A DNA stretch of 62,130 nucleotides, filler included, from Sluysia triapertura (lineage: Eukaryota): NCBI GenBank assembly GCA_046118255.1. It is 5 parts of 5 records of this genome, joined end to end, with 100 filler letters (N's around TTAATTAATTAA, not from the genome) between each part and the next. Parts side by side here need not be neighbours in the genome. Positions count along the whole stretch, not along the records: positions 1 to 11,525 come from JBJNIA010183746.1; positions 11,626 to 26,641 come from JBJNIA010241436.1; positions 26,742 to 38,327 come from JBJNIA010183124.1; positions 38,428 to 50,489 come from JBJNIA010142833.1; positions 50,590 to 62,130 come from JBJNIA010183490.1. One strand, given 5' to 3'. Each line of letters starts with the position of its first letter. The stretch's first letter is position 1. A program made the translations under genes and the position numbers. Below the pieces are notes generated by a model. That model ran no database searches. It had not been told where the DNA came from and saw only the letters and a program-made list of their open reading frames with translations. Shown here piece after piece: positions 8,342 to 60,232 of this stretch.

Positions 8342-9400
8342 GATGAAGATAATTCTGACTATGATCACTTCGGTAACATTAAAGATTTAGAAAATAATAT
8401 TATCCGTTTTGTTGGAAACAATTTCAATTAAATTCAAGAAGATCACATAATAACCTCGGAACAATCTAGTTCACTCGTAAAAGAAGTTGTATCTTATACC
8501 AAACTAAATGCCCATAGTCTAAATTGTAGTATTGATGAACGTATTCGGGTAGAAGTAAGTAAGATTGTTAAATATAAGCATGCATGTGATATATTAAGAC
8601 GAATGTTTAAAGCAAATTTGTGTTTTTATATTTGTTTAATTAAAAAAATTTGAGAAAACGATTTTTTGAGCTTAGTAAAAGTTTACAAAATTATGATGTT
8701 CATAACGCTACCTTCCTAGGATTAATTAGTGAGGATGAGAATGAAGTAGAAATTAGTCACAAGCGTTTTAAGTGCAGTGATAATGACTTAGTTATTATGC
8801 GTTATGTATTGGATAAATGTGATGCTATGGGTAATTAAAGAACGAATCCTACATAATCGTTTACAAATATACCAATTTGGATCTTCGAAATTATTCAGAA
8901 GACCAAGAACAATTAAATAAACTATAATTTTGAAACCAATAAAATTTCCAGTAAATGACAGTATATTCACTGAAGATTATTCTTTAAATGATAAATTGCT
9001 TAGACCCACACTTCAACCATCAGAACTCAAATGAAACGATCAGGTTTGGACGATGAGATACTACACTTCAAGTCTGGTTGGTGTCTTTATGCTACGAATC
9101 CAGATGGAAATTGCACAAGGTATGGAAGTAACTGCTTATATTCACACAACGCAGCTGAATTGTCCAGAAAATTTAGTTTATAAGTCATACTTAACGGATC
9201 ATAAACAAAGAATTCAACAATTAATTTCAACCTTGAACGAAAAACCCTTCAACGATAACAATTTTCATAATTTAAAAGTAATTATTATTTCTTACCGTAT
9301 TTAAATTCTTATAATTGAGTTTTATTATTCTTTATTATTTTTTAGAAACACGAAAATTTCGAATTCGAGATGTGTCGAGGAAGTGATTCGCAATAAATGA
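8342..9400 (+). pseudogene. Decayed gene with a single Unkempt-type CCCH zinc finger (paralogue 1)
   Basis: Frame from 9061 reads LHFKSGWCLYATNPDGNCTRYGSNCLYSHNAAEL (C-x9-C-x6-C-x3-H at 9082-9147). Upstream coding-like fragments include ORF 8650-8838. The listed ORF 9053-9304 is in the wrong frame over the finger. Confidence 0.75.
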
Positions 9401-10333
9401 ATTTTAAAATTAACTGTTAATGAAAATTTAAATATAGATGTAATAAGTAGTAATCGTTTTATTTATTCAAAAGATATTTTCGAATAATTAGATGTGATAA
9501 AGAACATTTAAGCCTTAATGATTATAAAGAAATAAAACCTAAAAATGTAAGAACATATTTCAATTCAAAATTTCTGAATTATAAATTTCAATTCATAACC
9601 CAACAAAATTTTTTAAATCGTAAACAACAATTTATATGACAACACCTTCATTTCTGGATGAGTAATTGAATTTAAGGGATTAGTTCAACATTAATAAATC
9701 TTAAATTATAGATGAAAATTAATAAGAAAAATAAAACAAACAGAAAAATCAAATTTCGTGCATGCTTGGAGTCCATTTTATTACAGTTTGGTCTAATAAA
9801 TTTATTTTTAGGGTTTATGCCACGTTTGTTAATTGTATATATTTAAATACAGGAAATAATTCTATAATGTAAACTTAAAATATTTTGAAAGACAAGAATA
9901 AACATTAGAAAATACCAACTCCACTATATGTATACAAAAACTAATAGATCTAAAGAATGGACATCATTAGAAGAAGCTTTTGTATTAATTTGAGCTAATA
10001 GATACAGATTTTGTAAAAAATAATACAAATATGACATGTTAAAAGTTGCGGTTAAAGAAATTATAAATAACTAGAGTATATTGTGGTGACCAAATATTTT
10101 TAAGTTTCTAAACAATTTTATTTTTTGCTAAAACTTATAAACTCTTTTCATATTAATTTCACACATGAAGCAACTTAAATTTGTTAAAGTATTTACTAAT
10201 TAATAAACAAAATTCTTATAAATTTTATCATATTTTCGACATAATTTATATGTGAAATGCAACTTAATTTTATAAATGTTATTTTTAGTTAGTTACTTTT
10301 AAGACTTAAATTTCAGAACTTTTGAAGCGTTTG

Positions 10334-10603
10334 TGTAGGGAAATTACATCAAAATAACAAACACACTTCATCACATACGAACATTTCTTACATAAACAGA
10401 ACACTAAATAAACTACTTGACTCATTCAAAAACAATCATAGTCATTGTACATAATTATCATTAGTTATATTTATTGTTATCATAACATGTATCATAATAA
10501 TCTCATGTCATCAACATTCAATTTACACTTCATTTTTTAATTATAATTATAACTTCGTTATTGTCAAACTTTACAAAATTTTAGCTTTTTCATTTTTCTT
10601 GTT
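10334..10603 (+). repeat. TGTAGGGAAA-start dispersed repeat, copy 2
   Basis: Direct repeat of 7291-7620 with the same sharp 5' start. Confidence 0.8.
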
Positions 10604-10708
10604 GGTATTCATGTGTATATATATATGAAATTGTATATGTGTCTCCATGTTTTTACGTATGATTATTCCTTTTCACTCTTCTTTCACTTTTTCTTTTCAA
10701 AGTAAGTA

Positions 10709-11525
10709 CAGTGAACGCTCTATATAAGCAACTTAATTTTTGAATATAGATTGTTGACTTAGGTTTATACTTTTTAGAAAAAAACTCATATGACAATGGC
10801 TAATAAATTTAAAAATAGTAGAATAATTGTTTGAATATTGATATGTTTTATGCTGCCATATTAAGAAAATATATCTGAAATTTGTTGACTTATTAATAGA
10901 TAAATATTTTTATTTGATTTTTCCTTAAAAATGAACCAGAAAGAAAAAAGACGCCCTATTTCAATGAAGGATAAACTATCAATTTTGAAGGAAATTGAAT
11001 ATGGTAAAAGAGCAAAAGAAATTTGTACTGAATATAAAGTCACCAAGTCTACGATTAGCAGGATAAAGGAAAATAAGGAAATTCTAGAGAAATATGCATC
11101 CGAAACCTATGTGAATCAGGATAAAATAAAGCGAATGATGACAATAAAGTAAAGAGAAATCGACAATACGGTGTATTCTTGGTTCTTGGAGCGACGACGC
11201 CTAAATGATTTGGTTCCAAACGAAATTATAAAATTAAAGGCTCTTAAATATGTAAACTATGTAACGGCCCCCAGACATTTGTGGCAAGTGATGGATGGTT
11301 AGCAAAATTTAAAAAAATATTATCCGTTTCTGGAGAGAGCGCATTTAAAGATAGATTTAAAAAATATATTGCCGAAAGCGGTTTCTCGCCTGAGCAAATA
11401 TATAACTGTGATGAAATAGGGCTCGTCTATAAAAGCTTACCTAATAATACTAACGTTTCTAATTTCGAAAAGTCTGCTGCTGGGAGAAAAGCAATGAAAG
11501 AAAGAGTAACAATTATGCCTTGCGT
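10709..11525 (+). mobile_element. pogo/Tigger DNA transposon, 5' part with disrupted transposase
   Basis: TA followed by a CAGTGAACGCTC TIR-like start. ORF from 10931 has a psq-type HTH (KRRPISMKDKLSIL...VTKSTISRI), a CENP-B HTH (VYSWF; FVASDGWLAKFKK) and the DDE start (QIYNCDEIGL...KERVTIMPC). Stop at 11150. Truncated by the gap. Confidence 0.92.
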
Positions 11526-11625
11526 NNNNNNNNNNNNNNNNNNNNNNNNNNNNNNNNNNNNNNNNNNNNTTAATTAATTAANNNNNNNNNNNNNNNNNNN
11601 NNNNNNNNNNNNNNNNNNNNNNNNN
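11526..11625. other. Assembly linker N44-TTAATTAATTAA-N44
   Basis: 100-bp spacer with stop codons in all six frames, identical at four sites. Confidence 0.98.
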
Positions 11626-13195
11626 GTGTTTGAAAGGGACCTTCGAATGAAGATAACGTTTGGCAATGTTAAAGCAAGGAAAGCCTCTATATTGAGCAAA
11701 GTCGAATTTTAATTAATTTTTAATTTAAAATGCTAAAATTTCATATTGAGAATGATGAAGATATGATGAATTTGGTATGGAATTATTGCTATGAAATAGG
11801 AGAATCAGAATATGAGGTTGAAATTTTTGTGAAATGGTTCGTTTGGGAATGAGAACCTTAAATATTTTCTATTAAAACTGGAGTGTGAGGAATTGAAAAT
11901 TAATTAGAATGCAAAAGCTAAAGTTAAATTCATTATTTTTATGAATGTCAATAATAATAATTGCTATTTTAATGTAAGAAGTGATTCATGAAAAAGTAGA
12001 TCGAATAGAGTAGAAAACAAATTAGAGTTGATTGTTAATCGAATTCTTTTGTTTTGCTTGACAGGTCTTACCATGTAAATGTCAAAGTCGTTTTAGTCGG
12101 TTTTATCTTTAAAAGAGGTTTTGATGATTTATGTAATAGTAATTCCTGATTGCGAAAGTAGAAATGTTTGGATGACATAAAAGTATAAATTAGAACATTT
12201 AGGCATTTTTACTCGCACATAAAAAAGGGGAGACAACATTCACAGGTGATCGCGAAAAGATCCATGCTTTCGTAAAGCCTTTTAAATTTTCCTTTAAATA
12301 AATATTAATTTTAATAAGGGCTATTTTTATTATAATATTTTAGATTTCATTATAGATCTGGTTAAAACAAATCTTTGTTTTTTTAATATATTGTCATAAT
12401 ACTCTAAATTTTATACTTATTGATTTAGTTAAAGTAAATTGTATTTTTATCTTTGGGATTCGCCATCTCACATTTAGTAAATAGTTTTGTATTTTTAGGG
12501 GGATTCATTTTTATTTATTCTAGATAATTTATATTAAAATTTTTGGAAATGTCCATTTGAAGTAATTGTAGCATATGATATTTTTAAAGAGTTTATTTTT
12601 GTGTTATAACTAGAGTGAGATTAAGAAACACAAATTGATATTTATTGTTATTATAGATTTAATTTGTTTTTGGTAATTGTTAAAAATTTCATATTACAGA
12701 TAATCATTATTTTGTAGATTGTTTAAAATATATTAAATTGTTGTATTCGATTTTATCATTGATTTGTAATATTAGAAAAATGTTTATTATTGTGGTAAAT
12801 ATTTTTGGGAATTTATACTATTATTATTAGAAAATACTTTCGTGACAGTTTAATATAAGGCCCAACATAATTTTAGTGCCCCAGTTATTTTAATAGCTAA
12901 TTTAGTGTTTATTATATATTATTTAATAGTTTCTCTTTAGAAAGGCATACTATTATTGATTATTTTTATTGATTATAAAAATATTTTCGGGGATTTTTAT
13001 ATTTGGGGGAATATTACTATAAGTTATTGCATAATTATTTTTAACTTTACAGGATTAAATAAGTTATTTATTGAAATTGTGATAAGTAATAAAATATTTA
13101 TCTTCAGCACTGGTTAGTATTTTGTTTATTTTATAATTATAAGTTTGTTTGGGGCCATTTTATTATCGCGCCATTTTTTGTATAAGATTCTATTG
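11626..13195 (-). mobile_element. TGTTGGGA-family element, copy C (longest internal portion)
   Basis: Colinear with A, B, D and E. Minus frames give GFTKAWIFSRS and FDFAQYRGFPCFNIAKRYLH, the latter open in this copy. Confidence 0.75.
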
Positions 13196-13359: not shown

Positions 13360-14450
13360 GCTTTGGAAGCCTATCTTCATATTTCGATAGAAAAACGTAT
13401 GGAATTGACTGGTTTAATTAAGGAATTCGAGAATGCAGATTACTACTTAATGAAACTAATTCGTTTAACAAGCTAAATGATCAGAAACTAATACAAACAA
13501 AGGATAAAACACCACTTTTTATTCGTACGGCGTGGATATTCAGACTATAAATGAAGAAAACAAAGGTCTTAGGGAAGTAGTTAAAGAGTTGTCAATTCAA
13601 TTAAAACGACAGAAAATTAATGATGAAGAAAAGGATGATGAGGCTGATAAAGGAATGTTCAGTAAATTATTCATGATAACGGAAGCTGATGAACAAACTG
13701 GCGAAAGTACCAATATTGAGGAGTCGTCAATTAACGAGAATATCGATATAAAATGTTTATTAAAATAGACAAGATAGATAATGAATCAATAATAAAAGAA
13801 GTAGCTAACTTTGGACATATATGTGCATTAAATAATAGCAAAGATAGTATTTGTGAAATATTAATAAAAAATTACCCATTATATTTATTTTACAAGATAG
13901 TGCTGATGATACTCCTTTAAATAAAGTAATATTTGAAGAACATGTCGAAGCCGCTGATATAATCTTATCTGTTATAGAAAAACATATTCTATGGGCGATA
14001 AGTTTAAAGAATTCTGATCATCAATCATCCTTAATATTATATATAACATGTAATATCCTTGATTCTTTTATTGTTCGTTTGTTAAATAAGGTGCTCGGTT
14101 AGATATACAGGATAATTTAGATAATAACCCTCTTATTTATGTGATAAAAATGATGTATTTAGTGTTTCAGCGTCCAACTCATATGAACTATAATATTTTA
14201 CAAAAAGCAATATTGGAAAATAATGAAGAATCGGTCAAATATTTGACAGAATTGAAAAAATAGAAAAACGGTAGTAGGTAATCAGTCAGTCATACATTTG
14301 ATAGTACTTAGTAATCCTAATTTAGAAATGATGCATTTAATACTTAAGAGACCTGACTTGAATTTAGATCAAACTAATGCAGATGGCGAAAACGCCTCGG
14401 ATCGCTCTAGGTCTAAACGACAAGATACATGTAAAGATTACATTTTATGA
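13360..14450 (+). pseudogene. Ankyrin-repeat protein, IkB/Cactus-like, no introns evident, disrupted
   Basis: Stitched fragments: HICALNNSKDSICEILIK/LQDSADDTPLNKVIFEEHVEAADIIL...LKNSDHQSSL...LLNK/ARLDIQDNLDNNPL.../NILQKAILENNEESVKYL/GNQSVIHLIVLSNPNLEMMHLILKRPDLNLDQTNADGENA. Preceded by the acidic/coiled-coil ORF 13532-13768. Confidence 0.8.
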
Positions 14451-14734: not shown

Positions 14735-17700
14735 GATGTATTGATAGATGTTAAAGTAAACTTTTGCTTTTGACATTAAAAGTATTATTATAAATAAATT
14801 ATTAAGTTGTTAAAATTTCACCAAGTAATATAACACAGTACTGTTAATATTTAACACGGTTATTTACATAAATAATACATTTATATTTTATTAGTAAAAT
14901 GCGACATTTCGTAAATTAAACAAACTCAAAATTCATATTATTCATATCACTCACTTTCAACCACAATTTATCATTTTTATTTAGAAATATATATACTTCT
15001 TTTATACTTCCTCATAAATTTGTGATACTGGGGTAATGATAAAAGTTTTTTTAACGTTATTTTCCTGCAATAAAGATATAAACCAAGTATCAAATATTTT
15101 TTATTCATCGAGAATGTCAGATTCAGTTACACAAGCAGGAACATCTTCATTCTGAAACAGAGTTAAAAACTTGGGTCCAACTTTCAAGTACTTTCCAATG
15201 TTTAGCTCTTCGATGAGCTCTCTAAAATTTTCCATAAGTAGGGCTGGGGAAATAAGAAATTGAGAATGTTTATTTTTAAAAAAGGGGTTTTTTTTAAAGA
15301 TGTATATTTATTTTTAGAATTTATGATGCTACTTTACAATCATAAATTGTGACTAAATCGAGTGGGATAACAAGGAAAATATTTATTTTACTGAAGAAAT
15401 CATTAGGCCCCAATACGAATTTATCAAATTTAAATTTTGGTGCTTCCCTAAAACATAACTTTGATATAACAATCCTTGAATTCGAATCTGAATTAGTAAC
15501 ATTAACTTAAACGCTTTATTAGTTATTAATTCAAAAAAGGAATATTTGAAGCTTTTAGATAAACACAGAATAGTTTCATTTGTGACAAAAACTTTAGAAA
15601 AATTGTTAATGTAAAACAATATAGAAACAAGTTTGAATCCTCAGATTTCAAATTAATTTCAAATTCGAGCAGAGTTCGATAAGAAAAACGAGTTGATATA
15701 AACTAAAAATAAATAAAGCTTAACTTCATTAATTATTTTTGTTTTTAAGTTACTTTTTGTTATTTAATTTTTATTTTTTTGTATACTCAAGGCTTAAATA
15801 CAAATTTGGCTAAATTTAGCATCAGAATGTATTAACCATTTTGATTCTCCATAAAATAACAGTTATTTTGATTCAATAAACTAACTTTAATGTAGATTAG
15901 GTTTCTTCAAAATTCACATCAACGTTTCGTATTTCAACCTAAAGAATCTTTTAATATTTTCAAAGGTTACATAAATTTTACAAGTTTTAAAATTATCCTG
16001 ATCAGCCGCAGTATTAATTGCAAATAAACGTACGCATTCTTTATAACAACCTCTACTTTCTTTAATTTACCAACTTTTTCCGATCCAAGTAAATCAACTA
16101 AATGTAATATAGTATAACCAAGCTCGATATCTTCATCATCCTCACTTAATAATTACGCATTAAAACAACTACACTTTAAACTGCACGATTAACACCACCT
16201 TTTATAAAAGTTTGAAAACTTCTTCCATTGATTTAACTTATATTACCACAAAATCTAGAAACTGCATTAACCGTACAATTACCAACATTTATCCTTTACT
16301 AAATCATTTTCTTATGCTAACTGATGAATTTCTTGGATATTTGACATTTTTGTCATATTTTGCAGGAGTAACTTTAAAACAGAATCATAGATTTTCTTCT
16401 AAGTACAACTTTTATCAAATGAATAAACAAAACAAAACTTGTTTCCCAATAAAACGTCTTTCTTTGAACCGTCTATAAATGAAACACAAGTTTTACTTAA
16501 TTCCGCATGTCCTAATGGTCGAGGTCTCACAACCACATTTATTGAAGATTCTGATAACATACATATCAAATGAAAAACTTCAAATATTTGAAATGTTTTA
16601 TTTAGCTGTATTTAAATTAAAGCATGAAAAATTCTTGCTTATACATTATTTTTTTGTATAATAAAAATCGTATTACAAAGAAAATAATTACATTACATTA
16701 AAATGATTTCTAAATTTTGAATTTAATTTATTGTTCAGTTTTACTTAATTTTGAAAAGTAATTCAAAATTTAATAAATTAATTATAGAATATTAAAACTA
16801 AGCTTTTGTTAATATGTATAAAAACAAGTTATTATTTTGTTTCATTAAGTAAAGTTTTTGTAATTAATATTCAAATGAAAATATTTGTAATCGAAATATT
16901 ATAGAATATAATATTGATGCTATGTACATTATATTTAAAAGTTTTACTTGTATATCTAACAAATATGAGTAGTTTTGTATATTGCAGTTATACACTATGA
17001 AGCTTATATATTGGTTTGCTACAGCAGATCTTACCAAATAAAGTTTAATAGAAAAGTATACCACTTATTCTATTAGTGTTTTAAAATTTAAATTTATGAC
17101 AAAATGCATGAAAATAAAGTGTTAGCCTTCAATAAGCAGCTTACAATCTCGTGATGGGCATCCATATAAAATTTTCATTAACAAATCTATAAATACTTTC
17201 TAATTATGTACCTTTTAGTAAACTCAACAAAATTCAGTAATATAATATAACCAAATTTAAACATTGCAATAATTATTTACTAAATCATGTCTAAAAAAGG
17301 CTTCTGGAATATTTTTGTTAAAAAATAAATCTTGAAATCCATCTGGTTAACATCTTTAATAAAACATTGAAATTAGAAATGAAATAAGTTCGCCTTTATC
17401 ACAGTGTGATAATCATACTTTTTTCAATAATTTAATATAGATAAGTTAAATAAATTTATGTTGTGTAAACTTATGAAAATAATGTCGCCTTATATACAGT
17501 TTTGAAAGTGACCTTTAAGGAATTAAAACAAAGATGGAAATAAAGAATTATTATTTTAATTAATTTTAATAATGTTTTTTATAAATTTATTTTTAATATT
17601 AATTTCAATAATATTTTTAATATTAATTCTAATAATAAATAAAATAATAATAAAATATTACTAACTTGGATGACGGTAAAATTTCCAACGATAACAATTT

Positions 17701-17970: not shown

Positions 17971-17971
17971 T

Positions 17972-20809: not shown

Positions 20810-22293
20810 TATGGTGGTCAGCACAAGATTTCACAAAATTTTTAAATTCGATATCGCACAACATCCAAATCACTCATCGCATGAAAATTTATTAAATTTA
20901 TGTTTTTAAACCCAAAAAATAAAACTAAATGAAATTACCATCAAAAAATTTCAATTTCATTAACTTCCTATTATAACCTTTTTTTTACTCATTTTCACTT
21001 CTCCATAATATCTTTCTTAAACAACAACTGGACTATAGTAAAGAAGTTGCCAAATATTTTCACGTCAAAAGAAAACTCCATCTATATCTCAATAAAAGAA
21101 CCTTGTATAATTTTCATATAACTATCTTTCAAAATAGCAAAGGAATCCATGTGGTTTTTCTCAATATCATCGGTATCAATGATAATAGTCAAAAACTAAT
21201 TCCAATTTCACTATCACCTATTGTACTGCATTTTTTTATCCTCGCAAATGTACTAATTTAAAACGTAAACGCAAACCATCATTTGGATCATTGAATATCA
21301 ATATGAAAAAGATAAAATGATTTAAAGGAAGAACTGATGAATAAAGGTAATTATCAGAATAAAATCTAAATGGAAATAAAAGATGTAATAAAAGTAATAA
21401 GTCACCTGTAATAACGAAAACGTATCACTAATCTCATTTTGTATCATTGGATAATTCTTCCAACAGATTTTCAAGAAGTAAACTCGAAGAAACAAAAGAA
21501 AACAATCTCTCCACCAAAAGTTGAACAAATGTACAGCTCTTCCAAAAACGAAAACAAATTATAAACGCAGAAACAATCGGCATTCACAGAATTATCAGAA
21601 AAATTAAAACTCTTCAAAACAAATTATTTCTAATATTAAAATATTCGATACGAAGAAATTTCCCATTATCATACATTATTACTCTATCATCACAACCTGG
21701 ACAATTTTATCCATTATTCCGTGCAGTCCATAGACCTTTTAATGTTCATTGTATCAATACAATCGTTAAAAGTGATAAAGATATCAAAGACTTTGTGAAA
21801 ACATTACCAAAATGTTATCGTAATGGGATTTTACCAGAAAAGTCATTATTTTAATCAAAATGAATTCAGTGTTTCGTAACAACAATTTTTATGTATGAAA
21901 GCTTTATAAAACTATTCCGATGTCAATTGGAAATATTCGATTAGTTTAACTTCTGAAGATTGGCCATTTAAGATCAATTTAGAATTGATAAGAATTTTTT
22001 TTTCAATCAATTGTTCCAATTTAATAGAACAAATCGTACAAGAAATTACAAGTATATCACTTAGGAATTCAAAATCATTCAAAATTGAATTAAGTATAAC
22101 AAAAATTTATATTCACAAATAAAAAATTCAGAACTACTTTTAAATTATATCAAACACGCATTCAAACCAGCAGAAAATGTTTTAACAATAAATTATAATA
22201 AATATTTCAAAGCTCTTAGTAGATATAGTGGTAATAAAACCCATTTTTACTTATTTAAACATATAAAAGAACCAAGTAAATGGCCTCGTGAAT
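20810..22293 (+). pseudogene. Decayed ORF(s) of unknown function, composition like the TGTTGGGA-family internal region
   Basis: A/C-skewed coding-like stretch ending ...NYIKHAFKPAENVLTINYNKYFKALSRYSGNKTHFYLFKHIKEPSKWPRE*. No recognisable domain. Confidence 0.35.
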
Positions 22294-24956
22294 AATGTAC
22301 ACAATTTTTTTTGTTTGATAGATGAAGATAATCAATTCTATTTGCTAGCGACAATTTTAATAATTTAATTTGAGTATAATCAACTCAATTTAAAAAATTT
22401 CATTAGAACTATTTTAATTGCAAGTAGTAATGACTATTCATTGAACATATATAAATCATTACGTTTACAGGGCATGTGCCATCAGTGTTAATTTATTCAG
22501 TATCATGTTTAAAATTGCTATCTTACCATTGGTTATAAAAGCTATTTGTTTAAGCACCACGACGTATCAAGTGATATACCTAGGCATTACTCTATTTATA
22601 CGCTACTAAAAATAGTAGGTGGCTACAATTATAATAACAAGTTCGAAACCTACAATTGTTCACAAAATATTTATGCCAACATTCTCAATGTCGATACATT
22701 TTTTAAAATGAAAAATTTTGTTTCGTGTATTAAAGTAATTCAAAAGACAGATATAAAAGATACGGTTTGGATATGTTATATTTACTTTATAATGATTTCG
22801 TAAATTCTTTGACACCTATCTTTTGCTGGATTTCTGAATCTAAATCACTTGGCTGCCTACAAAAGCCGCGTATCAACTGTTTATTTAATCCTATCAGAAA
22901 GTGCTTAATGTTGCCAATATTACATTCGTACATCTTCATTTCAATAAATTGATGAACAACTCCTCAACAATTATACTAGAACTGAGGTCCTAGATACTTT
23001 GAGCTTTGTTAATATGATAAAGCAGTTCCATGTCAAATTGATGATAATCATCGTAAACGATATTGAAGATAATGTCAATAAAACGAAGCAAGTTCATGTA
23101 AATGTATTATTTATAATCGACAGCGAGATTGAAGATAATATTAACAAAATAATCGAGATTGAAGAGAGTAATCAATTTAGTAAGTCAAAACAAGTTAAGA
23201 AATCGATGTTGAGTCGCGTTTGAGTATGTAAAAAAGTTATTATGAAGTTGAAGTTTATAACTGGCTTACACGATATGATCCACAAAGTACGTCTTTTTAA
23301 TTCTGTCTCTCGTATTTGTTTTTTTGTTTTATTCGTGTCTTAAATTCTTTTGACAATGGTTTCTCAATATATTTCTCAATATAGAAAGTTTATTTAAAAT
23401 TTTTAGTAAATATATCTGTCTTAGTTTATTATCTTAATTTTATAATCTGTAAAGATTTTACTTTAAGCCACTCAGATATTAGTTACATTAATAAACATGA
23501 ATATTTTAACAATAATTTTAAAATAAACTATTTTCATATTATATACAAATAATATCATTACATTACCTAAATGAATAAAAATATTTCATATCAAAACATT
23601 TCATGAAGATCAAATATTTCCGTTGAAATATCAAATTTAAGTTGAGCTATCTTGCATGGTTATGCCAGCTAATTCAATTATAAAATGATGTCAAACTTTA
23701 TTGATCAAGTTTTAGCTTTAACGCAATTGTGAAAATAATTACGAATTTTTAATTTATTTATCCAATAAAATGTGAATTGACAGTTACTGTATAAATTATG
23801 ACTTATGAGATAGTTGTTTCTTGTAGTTATTTGCAAAATACGAATATAAATAATGCTAATCTCAAAATATTTGGACCATACAGAACCATAAAAATAAACA
23901 ATAATGAATCAATAAGTAATTAAAACAATAAATAATACATAAATTAACAATTAAGCTAAATTTACATAACTTATTTACATTACTCTATTAAATAAAGATA
24001 TTATATTCTAAGAAATAAGGTTGCATAGTTGATTTAGAATTTGTCTGGCCAAGTCGTTTAAAGGGTTTTTTGTTTTTTCTTTAATTTTTTATGATATTTA
24101 TCGTAATTTAACTTTCCGTTATATTTTTTATTCAATCTCAGTGACTCTATGTTATCATCCTATGTTAATTTAAAAATAAGCATGGTTTACAATATGTAAA
24201 CAATATGTATAAAAATAAAAACAGTGAACAATGTTTTATTCTGAAAAAAATTATAAACTGTGTTATTTATATTTATTTTATTTTTATACAGCCGATTTCA
24301 TTGCAAATATTATTTTTACAATTATTAAAATTTTAAATTTATAAAAAATTTATCAAATATTTTTAGATAAATGTAAAGTTGGCTTTTTTCTTTAAATTTA
24401 ATAGTAAATGAAAATTTGTGGAATTAAAGCTTCGAAAATATTCTGCAGTACAGGAATTAGGATATACATAATAATAATAATAATAATGACAATAATAACG
24501 ATAATAATTGTAATACAATTTAATAACAGTTTTATTTTCAAATTTTTAAATTAAGTATGTTTTTAAGGTGAAATTAAACTTAATATTGTTTGATAATTTT
24601 TTCTTTCACTATATTACTTTATTCTTTGTATTTTATTTTATTCATATCAATATTTATATTAAACTAGTTTTATTTTATTACTATTTTCATATTATTTGTT
24701 TAGATACATTTTGAATTAATTTATTGGACGATAAATTTAATAATAATAAACTATAATTTAGTGATTGTTATACCTTTATTTCAAATGTTACAATGACATT
24801 ATGAAATTTTTGTTTAAAATATTAAAATAAATTGAATCAAATTAAATAGAATTTATTAATATATTAATTTATTAAAATTCATATTTAATCTATCTGCAAG
24901 AATATTTTTAATTACAAAGGATATTTAAATAACATTTTATTTTAAAGAAGTACACT

Positions 24957-26641: not shown

Positions 26642-26741
26642 NNNNNNNNNNNNNNNNNNNNNNNNNNNNNNNNNNNNNNNNNNNNTTAATTAATTAANNN
26701 NNNNNNNNNNNNNNNNNNNNNNNNNNNNNNNNNNNNNNNNN
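26642..26741. other. Assembly linker N44-TTAATTAATTAA-N44
   Basis: Same spacer as at 11526. Confidence 0.98.
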
Positions 26742-38327: not shown

Positions 38328-38427
38328 NNNNNNNNNNNNNNNNNNNNNNNNNNNNNNNNNNNNNNNNNNNNTTAATTAATTAANNNNNNNNNNNNNNNNN
38401 NNNNNNNNNNNNNNNNNNNNNNNNNNN
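38328..38427. other. Assembly linker N44-TTAATTAATTAA-N44
   Basis: Same spacer. Confidence 0.98.
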
Positions 38428-44293: not shown

Positions 44294-44975
44294 GTACAAT
44301 AGTTTAAATTTTCAACAAGAGATATTGTGCATCCATCAAATCTATTTCACGATTATTTAATGAATTTGTTCGCCGAGTTGCACTTTCAATAAGCTTTCTA
44401 TAATCTAATTTTTATGACCTAATTTCAAACATTAATATTACAACAAAAAAAATATTTAAACTCTGTTTTTAATACTTGCCACCGTTTCTGAATCAGCAAC
44501 TTAAATAACATATATAATCTTTAATCATTAATCAATTTATATCCTATTATGTACGTTTTTCCTGTCGAAATTGAAAAGTATTCTCGGTGATCCGAAAGAA
44601 CAAGACAAACTTAAGAATTTCAATAAAAATGACCTGTACTCTTTATGTCCTCATAAAACAATGTGTCAGAAATTCATTGACGAATCATTTGCAATTTGAT
44701 GTGGAAAAGCCTTGCAAAGTTTTTGGAATATGCAGGGCAAATGTATCGTCGAAAAATAATGGTCCTACTTTTGAAGATTCTGAATTGGCATTGAGAATGT
44801 TACCATGTTATCTAAACGGATTTATTCAAATGAAAATCTGATTAAATTAGAGGCCTTTATCCAAAAAGGTGTTGGCATTAATTTCGGTGTTTGAAAACTG
44901 AATGTAATGAATTTGTCATTCAGTATTTGCGTTTGGTTTTCAAAATGATTATTTCCGAATTGTAACCAAATTATA

Positions 44976-46059: not shown

Positions 46060-46231
46060 ATCAAGGTATTCTTTAGCTGTTAAAACTACCGTAAATGCTT
46101 TAATTTTTGCGACTCGCATTTCAACGCTGTCTACAACGCTGAATCCATTACTTGGTATCAGTTCTTTCTTTGTTTTATAATTCTATATGTTTCTCAGGCA
46201 TTTTCTAATACACAGTATGGCAATCCCAACA
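46060..46231 (+). mobile_element. TGTTGGGA-family element, copy F (terminal fragment)
   Basis: Reverse complement TGTTGGGATTGCCATACTGTG...GAGAAACATATAGAATTATAAAAC...GAACTGATACCAAGTAATGGATT matches the D, E and B termini. Confidence 0.75.
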
Positions 46232-48289: not shown

Positions 48290-48620
48290 CTAGTGAACTC
48301 CAAGCTAACTCGTAATAATCACAAACACCAACACAAACCAACACATCTTACATATTCAAATTAATTAACAGATTACTCAACACATTCAAAACATAAACGT
48401 AGAAATAATAATTTATAATTACTACAATTTTACGATTATTATTGTCATAATAATTATCATAATAATAATAATAATAATAACTATTGTCACAATAATATTA
48501 AATTGTTGAGTTTTTGAGATTGTTACTCTTGTGACTGCTTTTGTTGTTACGATAGTGTTTTCATGTTTTTGTTTTTTTCATGCAAATTTTTATTCTTGCT
48601 TGCATTTTGTCACTATTCTC
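48290..48620 (+). repeat. Divergent relative of the 7291/10334 repeat
   Basis: acatcttacatattcaaa...actcaacacattcaaaacataaac resembles acatctcttacatacacag...acttgactcattcaaaaaacaaac. Confidence 0.45.
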
Positions 48621-48649
48621 ATTATTATTTCTGTTACATCTATTTCATT

Positions 48650-49561: not shown

Positions 49562-50489
49562 TTGATCTAAATGTTGCCGGTGCACCTGTTAATCCGAACG
49601 GAATCTTTTCACATTCTTATAACTCATCTCCACATGAAAATGCTGTTTTATGTTTATCCTTCTCGGCTATTTCAATTTGCCAATAACCGCTCTGCAGATC
49701 TAATGTAAAATATTTAGCATTTCCTAACTTGTCTAACATCTCATCGATTCTTGGTAGTGGAAATACATCTTTTCTTGTAATTTTATTTAATTCTCTAAAA
49801 TCGATACAAAATCTCATAGTACCATCCTTTTCCCTAACTAATAACACTGGTGAAGAGAATGGAGAGAAGCTTGGTCTGATTACTCCAGCCTTTTTCATTG
49901 TATCTATTTGGTCTTTCATTTCTTGTTGATTACATAATGGAATTCTATAAAGTTTCTTTCTAATTACTTTATCTTCTATTAATGGAATTTCGTGTTTTAT
50001 TATAACGGAATCTCCAATATCATATTTATTTCTTGCTATTGCCCAAGGATATCTATAAATAATTTTGTATAATGTTTCTTTTTGCTGCTTAGTTAAGTTT
50101 TTATTCGTAATTTGTATTTCTTCGTAATCTTCTTCATCATCTTCAATGTTTCTTTGTAATTTTATATTTTTATTCCTTGGTTTATCATCTAATATTGTAT
50201 TTATTTGAGTCTGCAAAATATAATTGACTATCTTTCCTAGTTTTGTTCCTGCATAAATCCATTTATTTTCATCCGTATAATTTATTATTCTTACTGGTAC
50301 GTTTCCATCATTAATTCTACATATTGAATCTGCGATTCCTATATTTAATTTTTCTTGATTACCTTGTGAAGCCACAAACATTATTGGTCCATTCCTCAAA
50401 CTATTTGTTTTACCTGGTATTATACATTCTGTTCTTTTTAATAGCCATCTTGGTTCTTCTAAAATAACATCATCATTATCTATTGGTCT
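49562..50489 (-). mobile_element. Ty3/gypsy LTR retrotransposon pol fragment (RT N-terminal half), truncated
   Basis: ORF 49617-50399 has GVIRPSFSPFSSPVLLVREKDGTMRFCIDFRELN, FPLPRIDEML, LDLQSGYWQI and KTAF. After a stop it continues IPFGLTGAPATF. Ends before YxDD. Confidence 0.96.
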
Positions 50490-50589
50490 NNNNNNNNNNN
50501 NNNNNNNNNNNNNNNNNNNNNNNNNNNNNNNNNTTAATTAATTAANNNNNNNNNNNNNNNNNNNNNNNNNNNNNNNNNNNNNNNNNNNN
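50490..50589. other. Assembly linker N44-TTAATTAATTAA-N44
   Basis: Same spacer. Confidence 0.98.
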
Positions 50590-50748
50590 AGGTAGAACAT
50601 AATAAAATTATACTTAATACACTAATCATTGAAATCATTAAGGTTTGAACTGATCAAGATAAAAATAGTGGGTTTAATATTTAACGAGTTCTAAAGACGC
50701 AACAGATGGATTGTTCTGCATATGTTGTTTTCAATCAACCACGTTTCG

Positions 50749-52175
50749 CTATCTAAAACAAACAAAATTTAAGTTATCTTTAATGTAATAATAAAGAATG
50801 TTTACCCTATCATGATCAATAGAACAAACGTTGTCGAATATCTCTGAAGTTGTTAGTCCTTTACATGCGAATAAATTTGTTAATCTAGAGAAATGCTCCA
50901 GCACCTGATTGACAGTGTGCACATATACATAATTAGATCCGAATTTTGTGCATTTGCCATCTTGGTAACTTGCATATGGACAAAGTGCTGGCCTACGAAA
51001 TACATCTGTACTTGATAAATTGTTGAAATAATTGCGTCGAATTGAATTAACAACAACCAATGGGACTGACATTAAATTCTTGAATATATCGTCAAAATGT
51101 TGTCCTTTATGAGGATCAGTATATTGATATACTGAGCATATCTCCAAACACTTATCTTTGTCATCCTTATATAACTGAGATGAGTTAAGTAGTAGAGATT
51201 TATTTGAAATTAACTTTACGCTTGCATTTATTGTTAGTATCTTAAAATATTTCATCACTTTTTATTCAATACACTATTTTATTTATCTTGTACGGCGGTA
51301 ACAAACATTTTTTATATGGTTTAAAGTAATCATAAATTATATTAGTAACTATTGGTTCGAGCTTTACATTTTGATTTAGATCAATCACATCAACATAACT
51401 AATTATATCTCTTCTTATTCGAAAACTCAGCATTTTTTGAATCATCTCAAATTTATCTTTACTGATTTCAAGTGATTAATAAATTTATGGCATCATAAAT
51501 TCATAAAAGGCATGCTCTTTTACATTTTCATTCGATCTTTTCACCTTTAAAATTGCACAACATTGAGAGGATGTTCCGATAGAGTTATTAATGCTTAATC
51601 TAGTTTTATTACTGACACTGGTGATTAGATCTTCCAAATCACAAACTTTGCGTCTGATTACATTTAACATACATCCATTGCTGTCTAGACAAATAAACAG
51701 CTGCTCAAGACTTTGATGGGTAAATTATTTTGAAACATTAATATCAAACCTAGGATAGAGGACCTGTATATAAATATTATAAATGAGAATTTCATCGTTT
51801 TCTCCTGAAATAATAATGCATAAGCGCTTACATATTTCATAACTGTCATCATTACATGCTTTATCAACTTTAAGACATTTGGATGAAAATCGTCTCGGAC
51901 ATGCATAAGTGAATTGGATAAATTATCTAAAATATTTTCAACATTTTACTGTGTACCAGAGAAATTATAACAAAAAATAAAGGAAAATTACAAGAAATAA
52001 ATAATCAATTTATACTAGATTTACAAGTTTACGCAATTGATTTTACACTTCATTCTAAGTTCATTTTCAAATCAATCGAAGTTAATTCATAACCTTGAGC
52101 CAGTCAATTCAATCGAACTATGATTTGATTTTGTATAAATACTCTTGTTTAAGACACTTGCATAAACTTAGCATG
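50749..52175 (-). pseudogene. Decayed gene with Unkempt-type CCCH finger (paralogue 2)
   Basis: ORF 50749-51258 contains ALCPYASYQDGKCTKFGSNYVYVHTVNQ (finger at 50917-50982, third Cys replaced by Tyr). Upstream fragments 51485-51906 are on the same strand. Confidence 0.7.
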
Positions 52176-52401
52176 TAAAATCATTGTAAAATATTATATA
52201 ATTTAATATATTACGACTAAAATAACCGTTATTAAATTTGAAAAAGTAAGATTAAAGTAGACTGCTTAATCTATAATTTAATTATTATAGTCATATATTT
52301 GATATTGTTCATTTGTATTGTTTGTTTGTATTGATTACATATTATATTATATTTTGATGATTGTGTAATATATTAATCATAAGTTTTTGATAATTGAATT
52401 T

Positions 52402-52406
<5 letters not shown>

Positions 52407-52435
<29 letters not shown>
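52407..52435. repeat. (TA)n microsatellite
   Basis: Read directly. Confidence 0.95.
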
Positions 52436-52438
<3 letters not shown>

Positions 52439-55400
52439 GTCATCGTTTATTTTCTTTGTTTCGAACTTCATAAAATTTTCAGGGATATTGTTGAAAAAGT
52501 TAAAATACGTATTCATCGAGTTACTAAGATAAGACCTCACATTTTAAAAACTTTTGTTAAAATTTTATAGGTGCACTTGCAAAGCTAAGTTTCCAACTTT
52601 TTAAAATAAATTATTCTTTATGTAATATAAAGGCATTAAATTAATTTGCTTTATTAAAGCGACACTCTTAATATAACGGAAATGAGAACAGAGACTTTAT
52701 AAACTCTGATGATTAGAAGTCAGAAGTTACCAAGCTTCATTATGTTTAAATTAAACTCTATCTGAAGATAAACACTCAGCGATTTATTACAAAAATTTTA
52801 TTTTATTGTTTTAAATTTAAATATACAACTTACTGGATTTTAAGTTAAAATAATAATCTTTTTAGGTTGTAATTATATTTAAATTTGTGTTTATTATTAA
52901 TAATAATTATTATCATTTTATTTTTCTTATTTAAAGTATAGTTTGTTATTATGATATTGAGAATTGTATTTTGTTTTTAGGTTGTGTTTAAATAATTTAT
53001 TTACATTTTCATCATTAAAATTTTTATTCAAAATTTTCATATGATATTAACTATTCTTTGTCAAAAATGGCTTTAAAAACCAAATGGAAAATGAATTACT
53101 TAATTTTTTATTACGACGTTTATCATTTTTGTTGAATTATGTCAATTGGATTTTGGAAAATTTAGAAGATAGATGCAGTTCGATTGAAGAACGCATCGAA
53201 AATTTAAATCAACGTTTAAAAAATTGTCAAATATTAATTGAGAATTTTAATCCAACTACCGAATACAGTAAGTTTTTATGCTAAATTTGTTAATTTTTTT
53301 CTGATTTAATTAAAATAAAATTATTTTAAAAAATTGAAAGATATTGCTATACTTTATGAAGTTAGTTTTATAAGTAATTCGTATTCCTTTAAATGCAATT
53401 TAAATAAGATATTTGTTAAAAGTAATGTTTTAGGGAAAAGATTGTTTTGCAAAACCAAATTGAATTAATTTATTTTTGATTTCAACAAACGTTTTTTTCG
53501 GAATTAATTTTAGAAGTCAATATTATTTCAAAATTAGAATAAAATGAAACATGAGATTAGTAAGTTGCAAATATTCGGAAATATTAAAATTTCGTCATTA
53601 AACGTTTGGAATTTCAAGAGAGATAATAAAAATAATTTCTTATTTAAATATAAGTAGAACTTATTAGTTTAAATTTGTGACAAGATCTCTTATTTTAAAA
53701 GAATTCTTTTTCTTAAAATATTCGATGCGTAATTGTTTGACGAATATTTATTAATACCAGCACTAACTTAAGCCAAATGGTAATCAATATCCAATTTGAT
53801 TATGGTGTTAAGACGATGATAAAGTCCATAGTAAATAAAATCTACCGTTTTATTTCTATTATTTTAAGTGTTGCGAGTGTTTTTGGTATTGTCTTTTGCT
53901 TAAATTTGATTTTAAGGGGTTTCTTTTTTAGTTTTAGATTTATTTAAATTTGAATTTGGATTTTGTCATAGTTTCGTAGTATCACTAATAATTTTGAATT
54001 TGTGAAGTAAAATCACTATCTATGATTTGTTCTGAAAATTGTAACTATTAACAAAATTAATATTAAAATAAACGTTAATAAATCGTTTGAATTATCATTT
54101 GAATCCTGCACATTGTTTACTATTGTGTCTTTATTTGAGATTATTAACAATAACTCAATAATTAAATTAGTCTGAAATCGTGACGTATTTTCAATACAAA
54201 TTAATTAGTCTTTAAACACAGAAATAATAAGTATTCTCAATCGTAAATCAAAATCCATGGATGATGCAAGATACGAAATGTATGAGACGAGATAACCCAT
54301 AACACTGCTAATAATACCAAAGAATATTGCTTTAAGGCTTAGTCAAGTTGCTAAAGATGAAGCTTCAATCACAATGTTTACTACAAATGTGTTGAAGCAG
54401 TTATCATAATGGAGTTAAAGTTTTGTTACGTATATCTTTTTCTACGTAGTAATTGGATAATCGCTGATGAGATTAGAAATGGTAAGTAAAGAAGCATTAC
54501 TTTATGTAATTACTTATTCTTTTGACTAGGTTATAAGCCGACCAATTTTAATAATTAAATTTCAATTATAATTTCCGTCCACTTCCAATTTATCATCTCC
54601 AATCCTCTTATTAACAAAATCAAAATTTAACATTATCACAATTCTGTTTACTATTCAAATAATACATCAACTTAAAATAAACATAAAATTAATTAAATAA
54701 CAAATTTCTTTTCCATAAAAATTTTTAATACAATACGTCATATGTTAACTGTACGTTACATGTCGATTTTAATAACTTGTCTGAATTGATATCTTAATAA
54801 ACATTAATTTGGTATATTTTGATTGTATTTGAATATTACAAAAGTGCAAATTTAACTCTATATTATAGAAAATTAATTAAAATAACCAGTTTCAATATCA
54901 CTAATACTTGTGAGTTCGTATGTTATTTTCTCGTATACAGACATTTTTCATTAAATTATTAAACCAAATAACTTTAATTAAATTAATTAATTTAAGCACT
55001 GTTATATTTTCAAAAGGGTTCTCTCTTATCTTTCTTTCTAATTTAAACATTTTACAAATATATCCCATTAATAAACACAACTCATTATGATATTTTACTT
55101 TATTCTTTCAATATTACTTGTTTTATTCTTATTCCACAAATTACAGTACTCATAGTTGCTCCATCCTTCACTAAATATGTACTAATACATAAACAATAGA
55201 ACATCTAATTTTAACCAATAATTTATTCGTTTTGTTATAAATTTAAGTGATCATAAAGAGAAGGCTCAATGAAATTGCACGTCGACCTGGTTACGACACT
55301 GAACACTACCGGAAACTAATATTTCTTCATAAATAAGATAATGAAACATGGATGTTTTATAAGGTCGAACAATTTAAATTCGGAATTTTCGTTAATTATG

Positions 55401-55767
55401 TGCAGTTTTTGCAAATTTATAATGTTATGAAGTCATACCATTTTCAGTTTTTGAAGTCACATGCCTGATGTCATTTATTGAGAAAATAAGAATCTGTCGA
55501 AGCGTTATCTTTTGTAATTTCTGTTTCATAAGTTATTTAGTTTCCCATTTCCTCTATGATCGTCATAAAACCTGCTAAAATACTTTCTAATAATTAAGAA
55601 AATAGGCTTAATAGAATATATAAGGCTACCTTATTGACTATTTTCGGTCATCAGATAACCACATTGATGGAGGTAGGTTATTTTGTGATAAACATTTAAC
55701 TTGCTCTAACTTTCTTAAAATTCTTTTTCCTACTACTTTTGATGTTGTTATCTTATAATCGCTTCCT

Positions 55768-55914
55768 CATTCTCATTTTTATTATCATTATAGGCGGATG
55801 CATTCTCATTTTTATTATCATTATAGGCGGATGCATTCTCATTTTTATTCTCATCATAGGCGGATGCATTCTCATTTTTATTCTCATTATAGGCGGATGC
55901 GTTCTCATTTTTAT
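55768..55914. repeat. 33-bp tandem repeat, about 4.5 units
   Basis: Unit CATTCTCATTTTTATT(A/C)TCAT(T/C)ATAGGCGGATG at 55768, 55801, 55834 and 55867, plus a partial unit at 55900. Confidence 0.95.
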
Positions 55915-58900
55915 ACATAATAATAAAGGAATTTTATTTTTATTTTAATATCGCTGATCAACAATACAAACGAAAAGGTTCGGGCAGGGTTCTGAAGAGC
56001 TTAAAGAAACGTGAGACCACGGAGGATGCAGATCTTTTACTCCCTGTGTTGAAGAAGGTAAATATTGGGAAACGTTTTAATACTGAGTTGAGCTTATTTA
56101 ATTGTAAGGAAGTCAAAATTCGCGTCAAATTAAAATTAAAATTAAAGATAATCGAAACCTTAGGAAAAATGGTGCACGTACAGAGAAGCCAGAAAATCAG
56201 GTCGTCATCAATTACCAGGATAAACAGGTGTCTGCATTCATTACCATTACTTGATCGCGGTAGCTAATGGAAATTATGAGGGGCTCAAGTCATGCCGCCG
56301 AAATGACAATATCAATATTTGAATTTATATCACTATACATTTTAGTGTTTGTTTTCGTGTATGATCGACGATAATTTTCGTCGACTTCCATTTTGTCATC
56401 TCCCAACAATTACTCTTAAAATTAAGAGTTTAAGACATATGTGCCGCATATTGAAACACTAACTTTACTAATTTATTAATTTCTTCATTGTCGGAATTAT
56501 AAGCTTACATTAGAATATCGGACGGCTTTACAGATTCAGTTTCTTCTGGAAGATTTTCCTGTAACTCCCGCTTTTCTACATGGCCTTAATTTTCAGACGA
56601 TTCTTCCAATTTCGCTAAATAATTGTTGTCAGATGAACTTTTATCTGATTCTAAGCGTCTTTTGTCAACACAATGTATTGTATTTCTTTCGATATCTTCA
56701 TTTAAAATTGGTTCCACAAGTAATGTCTTGTAAGACTTGATAGACCCCATAAATCTACTGTGTTCTTCACGTATTCCAAAACTTTTTGCCCACGATATTC
56801 TGCCATTAATGAGACTCGCAAACATCTGGAGCTTCCTGGGTGGTTAATCGTTATTTTCTAAATCAGTAATTAATATTTCAGACATTTTTAATTAATTAAA
56901 TATGATAAATAAAATACTCAAAATTAAACAAAATAAATATTAATAGCAACTCGGGCCAACCACTAATATCAAAAAAGGCTTACTAAAGGTGTTTGTTGCA
57001 GTTGTGTCGAAGCAGTTATTTTAATAGAGCTAGTTATTCTGCCGTTTTGTTACCTATTTCTTCTTCTGCATATATGATAAAATTCGATTATTGGAAGTAC
57101 AGAAGTAATTACTTTAAATCCAAATTAATAACTCGATGTTATAAGACCAACTGTGCTAGATACAGTCATCTTTTTCCTTGTTGTAGTTTTCTTTTAAAAA
57201 CGTTATCTAATAATCATAAAAAAGATTTTATCTTTGTTAAGTTCTGCAGAAACACGCTAATTTCTGCTTGAGTGCATCTCTGACATTTTGAAACACATTG
57301 TCGCTAAATTTTAATTTCTATTGGATTGTTTGAAAGATATCGACCCTGAAAATCACGCCTCTATATTTTATAATCCGGATAACACTTTTCAAAAAAATGA
57401 ATAAAAACAAGTTTATTTTCTTTTATTGATATTCTTCACACATTTTGTTCTGTAACCCACTTTACGAGTCCAAATTTTTTCGCGACTCATTGGTGAATAT
57501 TAATTCTTTGTCAAGATTAATTTTAAACAATAAGCGTTATTAAAACTTAAAGTCAAAATAAGATTTAACCGCACTTATATTATCAAATAACACAAAATTA
57601 TAACAATTATATTTCTAAATATAAATCAAATATTCAATTATTAATTATAGTTATTAATTATTAAATAAAATAATACAATTATAAAAAACCAAGGATGATG
57701 CAGTCAAAACTGTAATGTCCCGCAAATTAAATAAAACTGACCATAATTAGTTCAATTAATACGAAATTCAAGTTTAACGCAACTGAAATTAACAAAACCA
57801 ACTCGCTTGTACATAGGAGTTTAATTATACTTGTCTCATTAATTTGATGTCGATAAGCTACACAGAGTCGAGAAACATGCAATCTCTCTCTTTCTTCGTT
57901 TACTAGGCCGAAAACCGTTTGATAAATTAATGTAATTAAGTTTGTCAAGCCACATCAAATTAGTCATCTCTTGTTGATGATTAATTAGTTTCTTTCCCAT
58001 TTTCAAATATCTACGTTTATTATTGATTATTCCTAAATTTCCTGAACAATTTAAGAAAATTATTGATTATCACAACTCTTCCTACCATTTTAACTTTATA
58101 TAGACTTTTTTGAAAATATTTCCATTATTTCACTTATTGTCCTAGTAGTTCTTGCACCATATATATATTATTTAATTGATAATGTTATATGTACTCATGA
58201 TGACACTAATATTAAAAACATTTGGGTACAGACATATAATTGGATTTAATTATGAATCCATATCTAAGATTAAAAACAATAATTTTGTTACTTTTGTTTT
58301 GTATAATTTTGAAAATGCATTGATCGATTTCGAAGACATAAACAATGCCCCATTATATAAGGATATATTTGAATTTTTGTTCCCACCAAACGTCATTTTT
58401 AATTTTAATTTAAGTGTTGAAGTTTTAATTCAAAATGTTACATCTCAAAGTATATGAACCATTTTAAAATCTATTAGTTTTAACTTTATTTTAAAGCTTA
58501 ATGTTTTTAGTTTGAATTTTAAAGTTTTTGATCTTAAACATATTTTAATCTTTAGAAATTATGAAGGCCTTTATATCGATTTAAAATTAGAATGTCGATA
58601 AATTGAATGATGCGATTGTGCTGATCTTTAAATTTTATGAAATTAATAACGTTAATCCGAATTATATTAATAGCTTTAGAGGTAGTATATGTTCTTTGAT
58701 TTTTATGAATTACAGGCAATATACTTATAATATTGGTATATTGCTATTGATTATTTTCCGCAAACCTCGTTATGTGGTTTTGAAGTATATGTATTTTTGT
58801 AAGGTGGTTGCAGATATCATTGGCATATATGTACTAGAGTATGGTAGAATCACGGTGTTGCTTGATTTTTGTGGTATTTAAAATTATTATATTATTCAAC

Positions 58901-59199
58901 AAAAAATTTATAATGTATCTTTTAATTGTGGCTTTAAAAACATGTACTTTAACTTCAAATTTTATACAGTTTATTAAAAAATTTTGATTTAAAATTTTAA
59001 GATTAATAATGTGAAATCTAAAAACACTAACAGTTTTATTGAACATAAAAATTACTAAATTATCATTATAACATGTATAACTAATGTCTTCTTTGTTGTC
59101 AGTCGTCCTTATTTTCCTATCTACACCAAAATCAATAGTTAAATTATCATTATAATAAAAATAAATAAAAATTACGTTTGTATTGTCACAAAAGTTGAT

Positions 59200-60232
59200 A
59201 TTATTCGGTTGGATAGGAAAGTTGAGTGATCGCATTAAATCTGAGTCTGGATAGATGATCCAAGTTAACATGATGTAAATATGAATCCGCCATTTGACCA
59301 ACAGTGTGAGCATGTAGACAACTGCTTGAAGATCATGCGCATGTACCATTGAAGTCGCTTCCATATGGACATAATGCCATTCCGACACGTCGATCAGAAG
59401 TTGTACACGTTTAATTGTATTATGATAAAGTCACAATTGACTAGGAGAATTTCTGACTGCGCATTATCTTAGCATAATTTATAGTAAGAACTGTGAGAAG
59501 AATTATCGTTATTCACTTTACTCTCTGATGTATCATAATTCTGTGATACATTGCTTGACAATCTTTTGTATCGATTATAGACTTAAATTCCGAAATTTAA
59601 TCATTTACATCTGTCATAGTGTTGACAAGAATTAGAGGTTGAATCTGTGTACTTTGAGATAAACTATACTCATCATCACTAAGGTCTTCAAATGTCTAAC
59701 ATAGATTTTACTCACATCTACGTTGAGGTGAATTACATTATTTGGTACTCTATCTAAGCCAGATAATTTCAACACATCTGAGTTCACATGCATTTATTAA
59801 AAGTGATGTTGTAATCAGTTTAAAATGTACATTCTTAATTGATTTTAGTAATTCATCAAAAGTTTCAAACATTACAAGATCTATTGGTAGTGAATTCTTA
59901 GGATAAAGACAATTCAAAATTTTCATATCAGGTTTTAAAGATTCAACATAACAATTTAATGTTGATTTATGAATGACGTGCCAAATACAGATTGTACTGT
60001 AAACAATATTTGTAATTGGATTACTATCATCTTTGAGAGTTATGTCTTCTCTAATTGTCCAAAATTGATGATCTAAAACTGGTCTAAGTTGTTGATGACG
60101 AAATATTATTTCTATGGCAGAAACAAAATTAAATGAATAAATAAGGTCTCTCGACGGTTTTTGACTTCTTTATACATAGATATAGCTTGTCTAACTCTTC
60201 ACATATTCTATAATTAACTCTTTTTCAAGCAT
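59200..60232 (-). pseudogene. Decayed gene with Unkempt-type CCCH finger (paralogue 3)
   Basis: Minus frame reads RRVGMALCPYGSDFNGTCA*SSSSCLHAHTVGQM (finger at 59306-59371). Coding-like fragments extend upstream to an ATG at 60232. The listed ORF 58834-59388 is in another frame. Confidence 0.7.

Follow-up and report, generated by a model that had tools for sequence, protein, structure and literature searches.

We analyzed a window of 62,130 nucleotides (nt), filler included, from Sluysia triapertura (GenBank assembly GCA_046118255.1) that contains three copies of a CCCH zinc finger of the Unkempt type. Every finger is part of a chain of coding pieces on one strand, all of them truncated and decayed. 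In the first chain, a kinase piece is followed by a piece of a CCA-adding enzyme and then by the finger; in the second, a putative primase piece is followed by further sequence without a match and then by a module containing the finger; in the third, a 139-codon open frame without a match precedes the finger module. Stops or frameshifts interrupt all of the known pieces, and conserved residues are missing from them. We put at about one half the probability that these loci are dead chimeric gene copies, whose parts were joined when a reverse transcriptase switched templates. The genome is AT-rich (the G+C content of the window is ~24%) and, as the EGFR-type kinase piece indicates, that of an animal. 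The original prediction for this DNA had instead described three paralogues of one old, diversified gene family, placing the finger in the C-terminal portion of a gene, now decayed, of ~1-1.4 kb.

The three fingers and what they share

The fingers and the open reading frames (ORFs) around them are as follows.

9082-9147, plus strand: finger copy 1, an intact C-x9-C-x6-C-x3-H like that of Unkempt finger 3; the stop-to-stop ORF around it (9004-9183) has 59 codons
50917-50982, minus strand: finger copy 2, with Tyr replacing the third Cys, inside a 170-codon stop-to-stop ORF at 50749-51261
59306-59371, minus strand: finger copy 3, with all four ligands kept and a TGA stop in the loop (six-frame reading and profile)

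The three 22-residue motifs read exactly as originally quoted, and two of the three are indeed out of frame in the ORF track, where a longer ORF in another frame overlaps them. All four ligands without a stop are present in only one of the three (copy 1). The strict C-x9-C-x6-C-x3-H pattern occurs twice in the six frames of the window, whereas 30 null windows matched in composition contain it 0.1 times on average (maximum 1). In leave-one-out tests, the profile built from the other two copies finds the remaining one at 20.8, 36.2, and 26.3 bits (best null scores 12.5, 6.8, and 13.5), and at the DNA level the finger alone is significant in all three pairs (p 0.005, 200 shuffles). Judged by their sequences, the three fingers are homologous. 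Copies 1 and 3 are tied to each other solely via copy 2, because single-sequence models score them at 6.9 and 8.5, within the null range. The finger profile detects no fourth copy in the window, with nothing further above 5.1 bits. By codon position, 18/14/11 of 22 sites are identical between copies 1 and 2, the third positions being the most diverged, and 13/12/16 of 22 between copies 2 and 3, where this pattern is absent; the comparison hints at selection between copies 1 and 2, in numbers too small to decide.

The fingers match one finger of Unkempt, as had been proposed, with only copy 1 doing so strongly. PF25427 (zf-CCCH_UNK) is the top Pfam family for all five short finger pieces, and together with the leave-one-out scores this groups the three motifs with one another and with Unkempt. 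Copy 1 scores 30.7 bits against PF25427 (E 3e-7; gathering cut-off 31.1 bits); copies 2 and 3 reach 12.9-14.9 bits in short pieces (E 0.026-0.11) and show no PF25427 match when longer pieces are scanned with Pfam. In a PDB search with copy 1, Unkempt (5ELH, residues 93-127) is the top of seven matches at E 1.1e-4, with tristetraprolin the next cited at 0.018, and the three-finger profile ranks 5ELH first of four (E 0.0096). An Atlas search with the copy-2 ORF returned CCCH-type clusters at scores of 0.87 or less, which serve as leads only. The 9-6-3 spacing and the Gly before the second Cys are those of Unkempt finger 3, and copy 1 also has a similar lead-in.

The architecture is a different matter. 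Unkempt has six tandem CCCH fingers and a RING (PMC4358403, available text), whereas each locus here has a single finger with unlike flanks, and two of the copies are broken. The pattern C-x7/8-C-x5-C-x3-H has no match in the six frames of the window, and Pfam scans of the loci detect no other finger. None of the pieces scanned around the loci matches a RING, although copy 2 reaches a gap 330 nt past its finger; a RING-like reading upstream of copy 3 found no Pfam support. Since the six-finger and RING architecture is absent, we speak of Unkempt-type fingers and not of Unkempt genes. Lone CCCH fingers have moderate affinity for RNA, and Roquin-like single-finger proteins likewise place a lone CCCH finger beside another domain (PMC11381341, in the portion available). 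In contrast to Roquin, no RING or ROQ domain was detected at the finger loci, and the best family here is Unkempt-type.

Outside the finger, the loci have little in common. Upstream DNA compared over 250 and 700 bp gives p 0.15-0.88 in all six pairwise tests, upstream protein-level scores fall inside the null range in all three pairs, and a translated self-comparison connects the loci at the finger only. Beyond its finger, copy 1 has nothing significant in common with the other copies (anchored extension, p 0.075-0.50 in four of four tests), and its common stretch with them is the 66-nt finger alone. Copies 2 and 3 are the only pair with likeness outside the finger: their DNA comparison scores 65 versus a null of 22+-2.4 (p 0.005 for the downstream part alone), and anchored extension carries the likeness 192/213 nt past the finger on the downstream side (p 0.005) and 41/47 nt on the upstream side (p 0.025). 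Because the extension runs mainly downstream, we treat copies 2 and 3 as copies of one ~300-bp module in which the finger comes first, delimited by the DNA comparison and anchored extension as follows.

50725-51023, minus strand: copy 2 version of the module, with a short lead-in, the finger, and then 60-70 codons
59093-59418, minus strand: copy 3 version of the module, with a frameshift after the finger

The 60-70 codons after the finger have no family match in our scans. An ATG lies three codons ahead of finger 3, and the 3' end of the copy-3 module shows a short internal duplication with a period of ~84 nt (59060-59160, minus strand).

The coding pieces upstream of the fingers

Five stretches upstream of the fingers could be delimited, three at the first locus and one at each of the others.

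7673-8104, plus strand: internal piece of a tyrosine kinase domain of the EGFR type (PF07714), decayed, with stops and frameshifts
8309-8632, plus strand: decayed fragment of a CCA-adding enzyme (TRNT1-like), from the end of the head domain (human TRNT1 E 1e-6; PRK13299 E 3e-8)
8633-9063, plus strand: putative remainder (body and tail) of this CCA-adding enzyme, interrupted by three frameshifts, with the last helix in the frame of finger 1 and no stop between
51695-51853, minus strand: putative C-terminal fragment of a eukaryotic DNA primase small subunit, weak (best E 0.008), ~0.7 kb upstream of finger 2
59753-60169, minus strand: 139-codon open frame upstream of finger 3, unlike the other upstream regions, with an ankyrin-like lead only

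At the first locus, the kinase and CCA-enzyme pieces have the same orientation and lie ~200 nt apart. The kinase piece, which may be flatworm-like, aligns 144 codons with 145 EGFR residues over 432 nt (E about 1e-12), and this colinearity marks it as intronless. For the CCA-enzyme piece, human TRNT1 is the top of 13 matches, with homology to the neck and body, and there is again no intron over its 324 nt. The catalytic head has no match upstream of 8309 (profile alignment; N-terminal test p 0.21), and the weak PF01743 match at this locus covers the last 33 positions only. The locus thus resembles animal TRNT1 from the end of the head domain onward, firmly over 8309-8632 and tentatively to ~9063, but differs from it in having no catalytic head, in the loss of conserved residues, and in an in-frame finger where the human protein ends. 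Sequencing error is excluded as the sole cause of the decay, because both the kinase and the CCA-enzyme pieces contain stops due to substitutions and have lost conserved residues.

A profile of 32 bacterial and phage relatives carries the alignment to 8787, the piece 8722-8787 scoring 33.3 versus a maximum of 31.4 among 100 nulls, and the conserved Arg at 8764 lies 134 nt past the last firmly aligned residue, where 135 are expected. In the tail of human TRNT1, the R of LREQWKKSG comes 26 residues after FPV, and ~12 residues past that word the alignment ends. In the window, FPV occurs at 8945 and RTQMKRSG at 9022, which is 77 nt apart versus the 78 expected from human TRNT1; the word at 9022 reads through in frame into finger 1 with no intervening stop, and 13 codons after it comes the first Cys of the finger. 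Allowing for the choice of words after the fact, the rough chance of such a match is ~0.003. Other comparisons do not bring out the tail: an 81-sequence bacterial profile gives p 0.063 with an alignment differing from the proposed one, HHalign assigns a probability of <1% in three of three comparisons, and a PDB search does not detect it. From its short motifs, an enzyme tail reaching ~9063 is likely but unproven. If so, finger 1 would start in frame at about the point where a CCA-adding enzyme normally ends, an arrangement that random joining would explain poorly.

The upstream pieces at the other two loci are less readily named. All 11 matches of the primase-like piece are primases (best E 0.008; E 0.018 on a retest), and Pfam and NCBIfam show no match to it; its sequence makes a primase small-subunit piece probable, on a weak signal. 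The 139-codon frame upstream of finger 3 has no PDB matches. Its Atlas clusters are ankyrin-like (0.93, low recognition, 154 shared features), a lead only, and single-sequence folds, this frame among them, have mean pLDDT values of 36.6 and 31.7.

The surrounding window

Four N-filled joins, starting at 11526, 26642, 38328, and 50490, split the window into five segments, which may be artificially joined contigs. The joins (11526-11625, 26642-26741, 38328-38427, 50490-50589) are identical, each consisting of 44 N, a 12-base six-frame stop word, and another 44 N. The first segment contains finger copy 1 and the last contains the other two; because four joins intervene, copy 1 may not be truly linked to copies 2 and 3, and their closeness may be an effect of assembly. 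Pfam scans took in 30 and 134 ORFs, the latter a filtered subset of 364 open frames of at least 42 codons. Further features of the window are as follows.

7291-7440, plus strand: left copy of a 150-bp direct repeat, starting TG, bracketing the copy-1 mosaic together with the right copy (self-comparison)
10334-10485, plus strand: right copy of the 150-bp repeat, 84% identical to the left (self-comparison)
48321-48466: third, distant copy of the 150-bp repeat (self-comparison)
10904-11525, plus strand: Pogo/Tigger-type transposase (CENP-B_N, Tc5 HTH), frameshifted and truncated by a join (Pfam scan)
49617-50489, minus strand: Gypsy-type pol piece with reverse transcriptase, truncated by a join (Pfam scan)
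30350-30868, minus strand: frame of 172 codons, probably the end of a non-LTR (long terminal repeat) retroelement, matching zf-RVT weakly (E 0.24; Pfam scan)
16048-16560, minus strand: decayed, intronless, internally shortened kinesin motor piece (top match KIF4, E 1.5e-4)
44532-44790, plus strand: frameshifted saposin-B-like piece (SapB_1 E 0.009), followed by coding-like sequence (Pfam scan)
13850-14450, plus strand: decayed ankyrin-repeat-like piece (Ank_2 E 0.033; Pfam scan)
53051-53284, plus strand: coiled-coil-like frame of 77 codons that matches WASH WAHD weakly (E 0.01; Pfam scan)
1704-2597, 4679-6083, 11626-12189, 24957-25832, 32569-33696, and 46118-46231: dispersed repeat of ~1.2 kb in six copies (65-76% identity), matching no family

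The dispersed repeat is ruled out as the carrier of the fingers, as none of its six copies adjoins one. Several coding-like frames of 68-109 codons at 21400-23300 (plus strand) have no convincing Pfam match, a 33-bp tandem repeat lies at 55768-55914 (4.5 copies, 96% matches), and Rfam and tRNA scans across the window found nothing.

Origin of the mosaics and what they mean

The reading that we favor, dead chimeric copies, would account for the loci as follows. A retroelement enzyme would have reverse-transcribed cellular mRNAs and switched between templates, joining pieces that were inserted as cDNA and have decayed since. The finger would have come from two source genes or more: copy 1 from one of them, and copies 2 and 3 from another, a lineage-specific gene or small family encoding the finger and then a segment of 60-70 residues. 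What speaks for this is that the upstream regions are unrelated and match different proteins, that the kinase piece is internal and the CCA-enzyme piece headless, and that a gypsy pol is present; the intronless kinesin piece elsewhere in the window suggests that the copying process was common here. According to the available part of PMC5131818, the products of LTR-mediated retroposition include incomplete gene copies and chimeras that combine several parents, likewise intronless and in one orientation, although no LTR-element flank is established at the finger loci and the copies here are old and decayed. A number of observations weigh against this origin. The copy-1 junction, in frame at the natural end of the enzyme, would be a rare outcome of random switching, and the primase call is weak. 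The 150-bp repeat shows no target-site duplication (left flank versus 10400-11000) and no homology past its 150 bp, and no primer site or purine tract was seen beside it; given also its third distant copy, its reading as an LTR is unsupported. No run of at least seven A follows any finger, no vehicle of the mosaics was identified around the loci, and the loss of introns is unproven, as the pieces are intronless but their parents may be intron-poor.

A mosaic of co-oriented fragments like this one would also be expected had Helitrons or terminal-inverted-repeat transposons (Pack-TIRs) stacked pieces of intron-poor genes at the DNA level, with the finger module as a repeated passenger; such captures are likewise multipliable mosaics of host gene fragments (PMC6431247 and PMC8277862, as far as their text is available). 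We regard this as unlikely. The pogo-type transposase at 10904-11525 and the missing poly(A) tail would suit it, but a simple scan of 6000-11525 and 50590-62130 finds no GC-rich hairpin followed by CTRR-T, none of the 25 longest inverted repeats listed brackets a finger (ends of this age may have been lost to decay), no finger has the 1.2-kb repeat beside it in any of its six copies, and no introns were captured. We give a little less credence again to real domain shuffling, in which functional genes acquired an appended Unkempt-type finger, at the C-terminus in the case of a CCA-adding enzyme, and the window contains their dead duplicates. This would make sense of the last enzyme helix and the finger sharing one frame without a stop, the first Cys coming 13 codons past the tail word; of a common stretch in copy 1 confined to the 66-nt finger, as selection on a domain predicts; and of third codon positions being the most diverged between copies 1 and 2. 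However, the tail words are short and were picked after the fact, even at a chance of ~0.003, the bacterial profile tests and the PDB search do not confirm the tail, copies 2 and 3 do not show the codon pattern, the catalytic head is missing from the enzyme piece, and neither the homologue searches nor the literature search turned up a fusion protein. A broader version, in which the lineage freed one Unkempt-type finger as a module on nucleic-acid-synthesizing enzymes and so produced both a CCA-enzyme paralogue ending in a CCCH finger and, as an undescribed group, the finger-first family of copies 2 and 3, seems to us improbable.

More doubtful still is the idea that a large DNA virus once integrated here, or a giant mobile element, survives as a relic; its genes, densely packed, intronless, and of host origin, would include a finger-first family. 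Intronless co-oriented pieces and the ATG three codons before finger 3 would fit, as would weak Atlas rows for Nucleocytoviricota clusters (0.85 for the copy-2 ORF, 0.92 for the frame upstream of finger 3), and giant planarian retroelements carry many captured domains (PMC6431247, available portion). Yet the Pfam scans of both ORF sets and PHROGs (seven pieces) show no viral core gene, the pieces are truncated rather than whole genes, and the Atlas scores are leads only. Least credible is the family of three paralogues, each a gene of 1-1.4 kb with the finger at its end. The fingers are homologous and ~300 bp is common to copies 2 and 3, but the upstream regions are mutually unrelated and match unrelated known proteins, and the finger leads, rather than ends, the segment common to copies 2 and 3. 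Given these unrelated upstream regions, we do not regard the loci as paralogues of one such gene, and the proposal is largely refuted; its placement of the finger in a C-terminal part is not confirmed. What survives of an old family built around one captured finger is that the finger occurs in more than one old context; paralogous genes with diversified N-termini do not. Nor did the intact members expected by the original prediction come to light, in searches that are weak negatives. Word-based homologue searches, which cover longer proteins only and need shared 5-residue words, found none for the copy-2 ORF (338 candidates), the copy-1 ORF (1), or the CCA-enzyme piece (45). The three-finger profile, run against 1.84 billion representatives, gave three matches, all internally repetitive unrelated proteins; this search is insensitive, since it missed even Unkempt. 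A literature search, with most subscription papers outside its scope, found no paper with the full exact-spacing motif, no lone Unkempt-type finger family, and no CCA-enzyme-finger fusion, and the term CCCH is absent from the available text of work on cargo-carrying retroelements (PMC6431247, PMC5408684).

If the loci are dead chimeric copies, they would do nothing today and have little importance, being pseudogene debris of a known kind, and they illustrate that loci with one small domain in common need not form a gene family. In the source genes, the lone finger may have been a weak RNA-binding module, by analogy with single CCCH fingers and with Unkempt fingers 1-3; the fingers of Unkempt act as two clusters, of which the first binds A/U-rich RNA weakly (PMC12136788, in its available part). 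Copies 2 and 3 suggest a finger gene particular to this lineage, with no relative in our searches. Should a CCA-enzyme-finger gene exist, an arrangement that our literature search did not encounter, locus 1 would be a dead copy of it. Such a gene would encode an RNA-tailing enzyme with a targeting domain of its own, and the finger could steer tailing to chosen RNAs.

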